In this document: in pieces, positions 60,695-64,000 of the stretch | Layout: the number at the start of each line of letters is the position of its first letter | Position numbering within the stretch: position 1 is the first letter of the stretch | Source of the DNA: Ruminococcus sp. | Lineage (GTDB): Bacteria; Bacillota; Clostridia; Oscillospirales; Ruminococcaceae | Reading direction: 5' to 3' | NCBI GenBank assembly: GCA_017450925.1 | Contig: JAFSSS010000081.1 | Span: forward strand, 18,090 to 82,089 | DNA length: 64,000 nucleotides | Program-made: the position numbers and the translations under genes | The notes under the pieces: model-generated | Seen by the model: only the letters and a program-made list of their open reading frames with translations | Databases searched by the model: none | Told to the model about the DNA's origin: nothing

Positions 60695-62491
60695 TCAGAA
60701 GAGGCTCTCCATTTCCTTGATAAGCTCTCCGAACATTTTCAAAGCGTCGGCTACGGGCTTTTCGGTAGCCATATCCACGCCTGCACCCCTAAGCAGGGTT
60801 ATGGGGTCGGCCGAGCAGCCACCGGAAAGGAAGCCGAGGTAATCCTTTACAGCGCTCTCTCCTTCCTTCAGTATTCGCTGCGACAGGGCGATAGCCGCCG
60901 AATAGCCGGTAGCGTACTGATATACATAATAGTCATAGTAGAAGTGAGGTATTCGCGCCCATTCAAGGTCGATCTCGTCGTCGATAACGATGCCCTCGCC
61001 AAAGTAGAGCTTATTCAGCTCGCGGTAGATGCCGTTCAGCACCTCTGCGGTCAGTGTTTCGCTCTCGGCTGACAGCTCGTTTATCTTCAGCTCAAACTCC
61101 GCGAACATGGTCTGTCTGTAAAGAGTGGTTCTGAACTGCTCCAGAAAATAGTTTATCAGATAAGCCTTTTCACGCTTGTCTGTGGTGTTTTTAAGCAGAT
61201 ACTGCATCAGCAGAGACTCGTTGCAGGTGGAGGCCACCTCTGCCACGAAGATGACGTAATCGGAATACACCACCGGCTGATTTTTGTTTGAAAGATATGA
61301 GTGTATCGCATGACCCATTTCATGCGCCAGCGTGAACATACAGTTCAGCGTATCCTTGTGGTTCAGCAGTACATAAGGGTGAACTCTTGCGCCCGCCGAA
61401 TATGCCCCCGAGGTCTTGCCCTCGTTTTCGTAAACATCTATCCAGCGTTCGCTGAAGCCCTTGCGTATAAGCGAGAGGTATTCCTCGCCCATAGGCGCCA
61501 GCGCCTTGAGTACGGTCTCCTTTGCCTCTTCAAAGCTGATCTTCATGTCCAGATCGGACACGATAGGCGTGTAGAGATCGTAGAAATGCAGCTCGTCAAC
61601 TCCCATGAGCTTTTTGCGCAGAGCCACATAGTCATACATATAACCCATGTTCTCGTGAACAGCCTTGATCAGATTGTGATAGACCTCTACCGGCACTTCA
61701 TTTGCTGAAAGCGCCGCCTCCAGCGAGGAGCCGTATCTCCGCGCCTTTGAGTAGAACTGCACTGCCTTTACCTGCGCGTTAAGGGTGGATGCACAGGTGT
61801 TCTTGAACTTGTCATAGGTGTGATACATGGATTCAAAGGCTGACCTGCGCAGGGCTCTGTCCGAGGACTGTACCAGCGGGATGTAAGACCCGTGTGTCAC
61901 TTGATGCGCCGCACCGTCCTTGTCAACTGCATCCGGGAATTTCAGATCGGCATCAGAAAACATATTGAAAATGTTCTCCGGCGACTGTGACATCTCTCCC
62001 GCCAGCGCCAGTATCCGTTCCTCGGCCTCTGACAGAACGTGATCCTTTTTAAGCCTAATCCTGTCAATAGCCCGTTTGTAGAGCCTCAAGTCCTCACATT
62101 CTGAATAGAACCTTTCAAGCGTTTCTTCGGGAATGGATATGGTCTCCGGCGTCTCAAAGCTGCCTGCGGCATTAAGCTCCACATATGCATTCATAAGCTG
62201 CCCCACCATTCCTTGGTAGAGGGTATTAGCGGTGTCCTCGTCAGAACGCCGCTGTGCATAGTTCCCGAGACTGTCCGCCAGCACGGATATCTCGTCCGAA
62301 AGCTTGAGAAAGCCAAGCAGGGTTTCAGCACCTTCCGCCAGCCTGCCCTTGTAGGATGCAACCTTTTCGGGAAGCTTCTGCATCTTGGCAAGATCAGCCC
62401 TCCACGCATCGTCGGAAGCATAAATGTCCTCGATTGCCCACTTGTATTCCTCCGGCACCTCGGATCTCTTAGGTATTCTTTCTTCGCTCAT
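60695..62491 (-). CDS. pepF: Oligoendopeptidase F (M3B)
   Basis: R.EVPEEYKW, WIDVYENEGK.SGAYS, HEMGH, AEVAST, WARIPHFY. Confidence 0.96.
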   Translation of the reverse strand: MSEERIPKRSEVPEEYKWAIEDIYASDDAWRADLAKMQKLPEKVASYKGRLAEGAETLLGFLKLSDEISVLADSLGNYAQRRSDEDTANTLYQGMVGQLMNAYVELNAAGSFETPETISIPEETLERFYSECEDLRLYKRAIDRIRLKKDHVLSEAEERILALAGEMSQSPENIFNMFSDADLKFPDAVDKDGAAHQVTHGSYIPLVQSSDRALRRSAFESMYHTYDKFKNTCASTLNAQVKAVQFYSKARRYGSSLEAALSANEVPVEVYHNLIKAVHENMGYMYDYVALRKKLMGVDELHFYDLYTPIVSDLDMKISFEEAKETVLKALAPMGEEYLSLIRKGFSERWIDVYENEGKTSGAYSAGARVHPYVLLNHKDTLNCMFTLAHEMGHAIHSYLSNKNQPVVYSDYVIFVAEVASTCNESLLMQYLLKNTTDKREKAYLINYFLEQFRTTLYRQTMFAEFELKINELSAESETLTAEVLNGIYRELNKLYFGEGIVIDDEIDLEWARIPHFYYDYYVYQYATGYSAAIALSQRILKEGESAVKDYLGFLSGGCSADPITLLRGAGVDMATEKPVADALKMFGELIKEMESLF

Positions 62492-62566
62492 AATTGACCT
62501 CCTTGAAATATGTTGTCATAAGTATTATATCACAAACAGAAATGGATTTCAAGCTTTGGCAGCGTC

Positions 62567-62595
62567 TTGACAAAAAGCCCTGTGTGTGGTATCAT
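62567..62595 (+). promoter_or_regulatory. Sigma-A promoter of the edge gene
   Basis: TTGACA-N17-TATCAT with TG extension; predicted start site ~62602. Confidence 0.75.
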
Positions 62596-62609
62596 GTTAT
62601 TAAACACCC

Positions 62610-62700
62610 GGGGGACGGCACCCATAACAAAAAACAGGCAGGATGTTAAAAACCAAATACAGTATCGCTGCGAGGGGGAGGACACCCATGGAAAAAAACA
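62610..62700 (+). repeat. Two 27-nt direct repeats, each a GGG-loop-CCC hairpin; the second spans the RBS and start codon
   Basis: GGGGGACGGCACCCATAACAAAAAACA (62610-62636) vs GGGGGAGGACACCCATGGAAAAAAACA (62674-62700), 22/27 identical. Confidence 0.75.
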
Positions 62701-64000
62701 TCATCGTAACGAACAGAAACGGAAAAGTCATCGGCTCTACTTACCCGAAAAGGGCAAGAGGGCTTGTAAAGAACGGTCGGGCAGAGTATGTCAGTGACCG
62801 CGAAATATGTCTTTTGCATACTCATCCTCCGGCCGTGGATAATAAAACTACGGAGGTAAATACAATGAGTAAAACAATAGATTTCAATGCAAGAGAATTC
62901 AGATTTGACGAGACCTGTCAGAGCCTTGATAATACGCCGGTCAATGCAGGCCAGCGGGCTTTTGTCACAATGAGCTTCGGCAATACCGAAGTGTGGGAGA
63001 TAGGCGACTGGCAGTGGACCTGGTCTCAGATCAGACAGGATATCAGACTGGAAAAGAATACCGCGTATTCTTTCAGATTCTCTATGGAAGGCGGCATCTG
63101 CTCAACGGATGACGCTGTTACTGTGGCTCACATCGTTCCCAAGGGTAAATGGGAGGAACGCTATACCTTCCTGCTGGACCATAACAAGTTCATGCCGGAG
63201 GTATGTGTTCAGGACGGAAAAGACTTGCTTAGGACCTTTGAGTTGCCCTTCGATTCCGGCGAAGATGAGGAATGGATCATCTATCTTGCGGCACAGCACG
63301 CTGTGACAAGGTTCTTTGCTCCTGTCAGCTATGAAACAGTCAGCAGGATGCAGCCTGTGAGCTATTTGCAGTTCGTCGGCGGAGAGAGCAGGGAAGAGAA
63401 GTACGCAAAGGCTGCCAGCAGTATCAATGTGTCAGTTGAGAACCGGTCCTTCGACGAGTCAAGCTTTGCCAAGAAGCTGTCAGCTATAGGAGCAGGCAGC
63501 AATGCGGCCTTTGAGAATGTTACAGTAAAGCCGGATGCCCGGCTTGCCGAGCTGGATGCCGGCGTTCCTGCCGAGGGATGCAATCTCGCCTTTGAGAACT
63601 GCACGATCACCAGCCGGGCGATGTCGCTGATAATATCCAAGCTCGGAAACGGCTGCAACATAGGGATGGAGAATGTAACTGTCACCGAGGACGGCTTTGA
63701 CGATCTTGTTGATATCGGTGAGGAGATCGAAGGTGCGAACATCGCCCTTGAAAATGTCACCCTCCCTAAAGCACTCATAGACCTGTTCTATGATAAAATG
63801 GGCGACGGATGTACATTTTCCGAGGAAGGCGCAGAGGATTACGAGGTCTATGAAGACCTTCCAGGCGACCTTGTGGCTGTTGATACCGAGACCGGCGAGA
63901 TCTCACCTCTCACCAAGGAGGAGCTTGAGAAAGCGGAAAAAGCTCTTGCAGATAAACTTGAAGCGTCAGAGAAAGCTCTTGCAGATAAGCTCATTGAAGA
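62688..64000 (+). CDS. Partial hypothetical cytoplasmic protein (>437 aa): N-terminal PLMP/RRXRR-like domain, Trp-rich domain, solenoid repeats
   Basis: Hand translation is open to the window end: MEKNIIVTNRNGKVIGSTYPKRARGLVKNGRAEYVSDREICL...; absent from the ORF track because it has no stop in the window. Confidence 0.85.
   Translation, partial: MEKNIIVTNRNGKVIGSTYPKRARGLVKNGRAEYVSDREICLLHTHPPAVDNKTTEVNTMSKTIDFNAREFRFDETCQSLDNTPVNAGQRAFVTMSFGNTEVWEIGDWQWTWSQIRQDIRLEKNTAYSFRFSMEGGICSTDDAVTVAHIVPKGKWEERYTFLLDHNKFMPEVCVQDGKDLLRTFELPFDSGEDEEWIIYLAAQHAVTRFFAPVSYETVSRMQPVSYLQFVGGESREEKYAKAASSINVSVENRSFDESSFAKKLSAIGAGSNAAFENVTVKPDARLAELDAGVPAEGCNLAFENCTITSRAMSLIISKLGNGCNIGMENVTVTEDGFDDLVDIGEEIEGANIALENVTLPKALIDLFYDKMGDGCTFSEEGAEDYEVYEDLPGDLVAVDTETGEISPLTKEELEKAEKALADKLEASEKALADKLIE

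Follow-up and report, generated by a model that had tools for sequence, protein, structure and literature searches.

A candidate translational autoregulatory cassette in Clostridia combining a predicted PLMP-fold leader domain with repeated junction RNAs

Introduction

Ribosomal protein leaders, the non-AUG start of infC, the ermC leader, and the kinetic trap of the MS2 maturation gene are translational autorepressors or attenuators. PLMP domains were reportedly noted on some non-nuclease enzymes in the original IscB papers, and nuclease-free fusions as such may therefore be known. In a study of IsrB, the PLMP domain contacts tandem hairpins that hold the Shine–Dalgarno sequence (SD), and autoregulation is suggested by its authors (PMC9581776). 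A study of OgeuIscB describes a PLMP domain that grips hairpins mainly without sequence specificity (PMC9640706). The PLMP domain was lost between IscB and Cas9, and the proposal of self-control by IsrB is entangled with nuclease function.

The window analyzed here is a stretch of 64,000 nucleotides of Ruminococcus sp. DNA. The original prediction, made from its letters, held that a nuclease-free PLMP-like domain encoded at the end of the window binds hairpins in its own mRNA and that two isoforms are made from two starts, the whole forming a portable cassette of translational control. In this study, we compared the locus with its homologs and found this autoregulatory interpretation, taken as a whole, partly supported.

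Results

Layout of the locus

The features of the locus are collected in Table 1. Two 27-nt direct repeats (62610-62636 and 62674-62700), 64 nt apart and identical at 22 of 27 positions (81%), form the top-ranking direct repeat in the region; the coordinates given for them originally hold, including an RBS next to the ATG in copy 2 and an ATA in its place in copy 1 (62624), which lies in a different frame owing to the 64-nt offset. Transcription is predicted to start near 62602, and the leader from promoter to ATG is 86 nt long. The ORF stop is followed by a terminator-like hairpin and a T run, and the gene is monocistronic. No paralogue of the 441-aa ORF was found in its own genome, the assembly of which is 67% complete. 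A divergent oligopeptidase F gene (60695-62491, minus strand) has its own 11/12 sigma-A promoter (62524-62552, minus strand) back to back with the cassette promoter; oligopeptidase F is not conserved as a neighbor. At the other end of the locus, 63925-64000 encodes a C-terminal helix in which the stretch EKALADKL is duplicated, a feature that close homologs lack.

Table 1. Features of the cassette locus in the window
Feature	Position	Strand	Description
Sigma-A type promoter	62567..62595	+	TTGACA-17-TATCAT with TG extension, 11/12 match
RNA unit 1	62603..62647	+	P0 62603-08 with 62641-47 (weak here), duplex -5.1 kcal/mol; core with P1 GGG 62612-14 / CCC 62621-23, hexaloop, AUA, A-run plus C 62629-35
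RNA unit 2	62665..62712	+	P0 62665-73 with 62704-12 (codons 6-9), -8.9 kcal/mol; P1 62676-78 / 62685-87; SD and start codon inside the unit
RBS 1 and start 1	62674..62690	+	Copy 2: GGGGGAGG at 62674-81, ATG 62688
Whole ORF, 441 aa	62688..64000	+	Stop at window-equivalent 64013, 13 nt outside the window
PLMP-fold leader domain, aa 1-45	62688..62822	+	Predicted beta-beta-alpha-beta-beta, pLDDT 92
Switch segment 1 (codons 29-35)	62773..62791	+	Alternative partners: segment 3, leaving start 2 open, and segment 2
Switch segment 2	62789..62800	+	Pairs locally with segment 1 in the masked state
Switch segment 3	62816..62836	+	Anti-SD and anti-AUG strand; encodes disordered linker
RBS 2 and start 2, switch segment 4	62851..62871	+	GGAGG 62852-56, in-frame ATG 62865 (Met60), AGTA after
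Cargo domain 1, aa 62-212	62871..63323	+	Jelly-roll, CBM/galactose-binding-like fold
Cargo domain 2, aa 244-388	63417..63851	+	Predicted beta-helix-like repeat

The repeats as RNA units

The core of the repeat has a three-base-pair stem, P1, which is near-invariant (GGG/CCC in 170 and GAG/CTC in 3 of 173 units), and a hexaloop R-N-G-R-Y-A with G3 in 173/173, A6 in 172/173, A1 in 82/173, and G4 in 90/173. The GGG/CCC hairpin proposed originally is conserved across loci, but the lone stem is marginal, the 5′ UTR of the window folding like shuffled sequences (z = 0.27), and an outer stem had been overlooked. The case for the core hairpin therefore comes from comparative data and not from single-sequence folding.

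The flanks of the core form this outer stem, P0, which is 5 to 10 bp long and changes freely in sequence. Pairing between arms of the same unit was stronger than between swapped arms, whether in copies at the start, in upstream copies, or in a sister family (-7.7 versus -4.1, -6.1 versus -4.0, and -8.6 versus -5.0 kcal/mol in 57, 63, and 54 units, respectively), and the observed means were reached in 0 of 2000 permutations. With P0 held in one fixed register, 63% of the cells pair, with 54 double-sided changes against 29 in shuffles. RNAalifold did not recover P0 from sequence-only alignments because the pairing register shifts between loci; arm-swap tests and subfamily alignments were used in place of that consensus. 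The sister family inserts a further hairpin, P2, between CCCAUAG and the A-run of the core, and all five of its base pairs covary (49 cells versus 14 when shuffled). These comparisons support the view that every repeat forms the center of a larger junction, which the covarying P0 closes from outside, and since P0 and the inserted P2 covary around the same core, the motif is RNA, not DNA.

A search of Rfam gave no match over the unit at E ≤ 5. Our covariance model of the unit, against which unit 1 of the window scores 43 bits as one of its training members, matched neither omega-RNA 3′ ends nor sequences upstream of IscB genes, and the idea that the unit and omega-RNA ends are homologous was dropped for want of such a match.

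Starts and selection in homologous loci

From 100 loci, 59 representatives with less than 85% similarity, including the window, were taken for comparison; they are related by descent, and counts among them exaggerate their independence. Two or three core copies are present in 58 of these loci, one of them placed precisely over the SD and start in 57. In 50 loci, a promoter matching at least 9/12 positions precedes the first unit by 6 to 56 nt; that unit often starts at the predicted +1, and no unit lies upstream of it. An in-frame SD and second start at codons 54 to 68 occur in 58/59 loci, and in the window they are found at Met60 with its GGAGG, as had been described.

ATA and ATG starts had been listed originally as a feature to look for in homologs, and the frequency of non-AUG starts had been overlooked: the first start codon is ATG in 27, ATA in 27, and ATC in 5 loci. 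The following codons 2 to 4 are fixed at the nucleotide level (GAA 42/42, AAA 58/58, AAC 57/57). Leader pN/pS is 0.21/0.71 in the 32 non-AUG loci and 0.21/0.74 in the 27 AUG loci, and 13 of the former have no alternative in-frame start. Given this equal purifying selection and these 13 loci, AUA and AUC are very likely used as first starts. Purifying selection on the Met1 region likewise argues that Met60 is not the sole start in use.

Two other candidates were rejected. Unit 1 as a conserved uORF start was set aside, its frames and lengths being scattered, and so was a hairpin in codons 19 to 23, as codons 5 to 27 are more structured than synonymous controls in just 8/59 loci. Departures from the common layout were also seen. 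In two Ruminococcus albus-type loci (L079 and L081), unit 2 and its ATG lie 29 nt upstream of the leader ATG and out of frame. The RNA core is kept with an apparent TTG start, one base over, in L263 (G555); units precede a frameshifted and truncated leader in L112/L264 (G181); and the leader is reduced to its second half ahead of helical-type cargo in L113 (G408) and L115 (G232). In public RNA data, which consist of contigs with small shares and carry no information on transcript starts or ends, one RNA contig of a relative starts inside unit 1; we give it no weight as evidence.

Predicted fold of the leader domain

A model of the leader domain was built from an alignment of 16 leaders. A Foldseek search placed IscB/IsrB chains at each of ranks 1 to 9 (TMq 0.77-0.83, E 0.02-0.15). 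A wide structural search (VIA) returned PLMP domains of IscB/IsrB as its top five (Z 6.0-8.1, rmsd 1.1-1.6, 44-45 aa), followed by the next unrelated fold at Z 3.8, with IF3-N (1tif) at Z 3.2. Pfam RRXRR (PF14239) aligned aa 6-38 of the window leader with model positions 2-34 at E = 0.017, which is below the cut-off, and sub-threshold matches were obtained for 11 of the 16 leader members (E 0.003-0.017). The leader matched TbaIscB at E 0.012, hhalign of the leader profile against six Clostridia IscB N-termini gave a probability of 94%, and RRXRR clusters came first in the Atlas comparison (0.94 for P0001). The P-L-M-P tetrapeptide is missing; the aligned letters are VIGS, xIGx, or EYEA. The PLMP/RRXRR likeness, noticed originally by eye, is therefore real, weak by sequence and strong by predicted fold. 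For residues 1 to 45, the predicted fold resembles the PLMP domain of IscB/IsrB, with a sheet and one helix in an IF3-N-like manner. This fold, the co-occurrence of RNA and domain described below, and the analogy with IsrB suggest that the leader domain likely binds unit RNA.

Among 1.84 billion representatives, the leader profile retrieved 1,023 protein clusters with E ≤ 0.001. PLMP-like N-termini are likewise present on DUF4325, FtsK-gamma, QueH, and HNH proteins (Atlas rows; P0169, P0022).

Co-occurrence of the RNA unit and the domain

Conservation of the hairpin together with the domain had been put forward originally, and it was seen in two kinds of search. In a set of 401 class-level genomes, the strict core pattern occurs 15 times, spread over 9 genomes and each time at a leader, and the reversed control gave 0; one additional carrier genome has variant core copies. 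The covariance model matched 27 of 150 order-level genomes, namely, the window, 23 others, and three weak matches. The 23 strong non-self matches (E ≤ 4.4e-5), three of which are training loci, all lie directly before a leader, one of them truncated; the three weak ones have no leader alongside. A model scan of 149 other phylum-level genomes gave no strong match and one weak one, and the model found no second unit site in the genome of the window. As regards a possible IS200/605 element context, one cassette locus is present per genome, and its neighbors vary.

The plasmid scan for the core gave no match. In viral scans, seven of eight strict matches represent one clade of the same gene and one is without a leader, and 26 loose-pattern matches have neither P1 nor a leader. 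Seven viral-collection contigs (L158-L164) carry near-identical copies of one family member with an ATA start; the viral-collection copies are possibly host DNA flanking prophages. Weak HMM matches (L116-L120) were unrelated.

A predicted two-state fold over start 2

Synonymous controls fold less well than the region from codon 28 to the linker in 47 of 59 loci; for cargo controls, the count is 7. Segments 1 and 3 pair better with their own than with swapped arms (-21.7 versus -16.7), and the arms co-vary between subfamilies. In the R subfamily, 3 of 10 pairs of this stem are double-changed, a level matched by 0-1 of 500 shuffles; the E subfamily shows modest covariation by three measures (19-32 of 500 shuffles). 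RNAalifold gave no consensus for the 1:3 stem on the mixed alignment because registers shift, and it recovered the masking helix 3:4 unaided in both subfamilies. The two states are mutually exclusive: helix 1:3 leaves RBS 2 open, whereas helices 1:2 and 3:4 together mask RBS 2 and its AUG. Both states are available in 49/59 loci, compared with 20% of 708 synonymous controls.

Computed energies for the window are -26.0 kcal/mol for the open form and -30.7 kcal/mol for the masked form. Helix 1:3 forms first in 59/59 prefix folds. The full-length fold masks RBS 2 in 36 of the 59 loci, and in 23, computation gives the open form as the ground state; a heuristic estimate of the refolding barrier is ~19 kcal/mol. 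Of 34 E-type loci, 33 use AGT for Ser2 of the cargo, a codon with a background of 10%. These results, obtained with folding models on related sequences, predict that RBS 2 and AUG 2 lie under a conserved two-state fold built from leader codons. The original prediction had recognized the in-frame RBS 2 and overlooked the fold above it.

Cargo proteins and a sister family

The full-length model was that of P0001, a 441-aa protein differing from the window at one leader residue. Residues 46-59 are disordered in the model (pLDDT < 50) and the cargo fold begins at Met60; the product of start 2 is likely the cargo without the leader domain. Cargo domain 1 is a jelly-roll with structural matches up to Z 10.1, and cargo domain 2 matched a pectate lyase (Z 8.7, rmsd 2.9, 118 aligned). 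No Pfam or NCBIfam family was found for the cargo. A homodimer prediction for P0001 scored 0.00, which speaks neither for nor against a dimer.

Among the cargo of ~230 sequences, 135 are helical, 80 are jelly-roll, and the rest are singletons, and the large groups are unrelated to one another. Across three unrelated cargo classes, the domain is the only common part; such cargo and the lack of synteny support the portability that was claimed. The domain is also free of a nuclease, as had been stated: no RuvC or HNH follows it, the cargo being a jelly-roll with a beta-helix, helical, or a two-transmembrane (2TM) protein. The commonest cargo among the top matches, accounting for these 135 sequences, is an unnamed helical domain with an RETTN-type motif and no Pfam or NCBIfam family (L011-L013, L016, L082-L102, and 120 further proteins). 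One-off cargo (a sortase-type tail, membrane or beta-rich domains) is found in P0114, P0121, P0173, and P0221, which may be recent captures or assembly chimeras.

The sister family (L114/G389, L165-L244), traced from a weak match, comprises 60 proteins with a GETFxRRARQLVKQQRA leader and 2TM PF13239 cargo. In 54 of its 63 representative loci, a single unit with the inserted hairpin lies 34-176 nt upstream of the start. This unit folds spontaneously, and SD access was unchanged in folding models (0.46 versus 0.47). No obvious internal restart was seen in the family. Pairing of its CACCC with a downstream GAGGUG SD was rejected (1/52). The SD contains GGTG in 32/63 sister-family loci versus 175/921 in the own genome, a comparison between different genomes. 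A leader tree of 43 columns was mostly unresolved, its cargo labels followed a rough rule with at least two mislabeled, and we claim no order of events from it.

Discussion

We propose, with a probability of roughly 0.55, that the long isoform binds the units and represses start 1, and that the two-state fold couples start 2 positively to this control. In this mechanism, two to three units would follow the promoter, the last one covering RBS 1 and an often weak AUA or AUC start, and the predicted PLMP-fold domain of the long isoform would bind unit RNA and close RBS 1; upstream copies may add avidity or capacity. The masked form would be the usual ground state over start 2. The open form would fold first, on emergence from RNA polymerase or behind a ribosome translating the leader, so that leader translation would keep start 2 open. 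Once the long isoform is bound, leader ribosomes would stop, the RNA would relax to the masked form, and both products would fall. Start 2, served by a strong RBS, would yield the domain-less cargo as the amplified product, with the rare long isoform as its built-in gauge. The positive sign of the coupling is weakened by those loci (23/59) whose computed ground state is the open form. The masking of the RBS assumed originally agrees with the unit over the SD and start in nearly all loci, but the single unit of the sister family is off the RBS, and RBS masking is therefore not the whole story.

The two-state fold could also act as an isoform timer, in which a leader-translating ribosome sits over segment 1 and tips the RNA toward the masked state, the long isoform being made first and then shutting start 1 and opening start 2. 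Blocking segment 1 in the models reduced SD-2 openness from 0.43 to 0.22, with a fall of more than 0.2 in 24/59 loci and a rise in 0, and the open ground state of 23 loci points the same way. However, the ribosome would need to dwell on codons 29-35, where no stall motif is evident, and the masked form is the ground state in 36/59 loci and in the window, which makes this order of events unlikely in our judgment. It is less probable still that the domain captures its own mRNA in a lasting RNP for 5′ protection, localization, or membrane tethering of the 2TM cargo, RBS masking being secondary. The distant and spontaneously folding sister-family unit, with SD access unaffected, would fit such a complex, as would a first unit often placed at the predicted +1 and the role of PLMP in IscB/IsrB as an RNP-assembly domain, yet 57/59 loci hold a unit over the SD and start despite fixed codons 2-4 and a non-AUG start.

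A compact junction with invariant G3/A6 and an A-run plus C would suit a tandem metabolite- or ion-sensing riboswitch with the PLMP-like domain as a passenger; the invariant loop and A-run plus C are reminiscent of preQ1-I, and ACGR-like loops in 37/174 units recall guanidine-II. We give this little credence: no Rfam model, those of preQ1-I and guanidine-II included, matched the unit at E ≤ 5, the cargo is unrelated among families, and in the genomes scanned the unit is found only before the leader domain, never before transporters, enzymes, or the cognate metabolic genes of these two riboswitches. That the repeats are DNA operators recognized by the protein, or sites of -1 frameshifting (A AAA AAC), is highly improbable. 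Direct repeats just downstream of a promoter with borderline helical phasing (Rayleigh p 0.05-0.24) are what operators might look like, and the heptamer is in frame at codons 2-4, but the stems covary with strand-specific G-U pairs, a variable hairpin is inserted in the middle of the motif, the motif never lies upstream of the predicted +1, its spacing ranges over 41-132 nt, and the A-run is also kept in non-coding copies and in all frames.

We give even odds to the broader proposal that a nuclease-free PLMP domain and a three-way-junction RNA form a previously undescribed plug-in module on unrelated Clostridia proteins, in which a rare isoform gauges and gates an abundant domain-less isoform through a bistable fold. 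Literature searches for the motif or the peptides found no description of it, and the motif strings were absent from 6 of 8 supplementary files of PMC8040213 searched. If the proposal is true, the module would reveal what the domain did ancestrally, independent of any nuclease, before IscB employed it to hold omega-RNA. Since the domain (45 aa) and the RNA (45 nt) stand by themselves in the cassette, the autoregulation proposed for IsrB would become simple to test. The covariation-supported RNA motif is new to Rfam, and the leader family comprises ~1,000 protein clusters, which gene callers often mis-start because of the AUA and AUC codons. The RNA structure appears to dictate protein sequence in codons 2-9, codons 29-38, the linker, and the Met-Ser of the cargo. 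With its expandable RNA site, such a 45-aa binder could be put to use as an RNA tag or a compact repressor of translation.

Compared with the PLMP domain of IscB/IsrB (PMC9581776; PMC9640706), the cassette domain is likewise N-terminal, has a basic helix, and is encoded just downstream of SD-containing RNA at its own start. The cassette differs in having no PLMP tetrapeptide, RuvC, HNH, bridge helix, omega-RNA, guide, or conserved neighbors; no omega-RNA of 200-400 nt with a guide is present in its 86-nt leader, which has no Rfam match. Its RNA is instead a repeated 45-nt junction, and an in-frame restart drops the domain. With ANTAR targets, as described in PMC3369931 and 10.1101/660928, the cassette shares tandem short stems, hexaloops, a 5′ leader position, and a small domain fused to varied partners, as well as translational repression, here proposed, through overlap with the start. 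Unlike ANTAR systems, it has a different fold, a G3/A6 rather than A1/G4 loop, an outer stem, and an A-run, and its target is apparently only its own mRNA, at one locus per genome. The protein gave no Pfam match to an ANTAR domain, from which its predicted fold differs. Self-feedback at an RBS, a weak non-AUG start, and exclusive helices over a downstream RBS recall the ribosomal protein, infC, ermC, and MS2 systems, whereas the cassette leader has no stop and encodes a folded domain fused in frame to cargo, and the switch would therefore choose between two isoforms of one gene. By analogy, the cassette, which is neither an OMEGA system nor an ANTAR target, would work like ANTAR- or ribosomal protein leader-type feedback built on a PLMP-fold domain.
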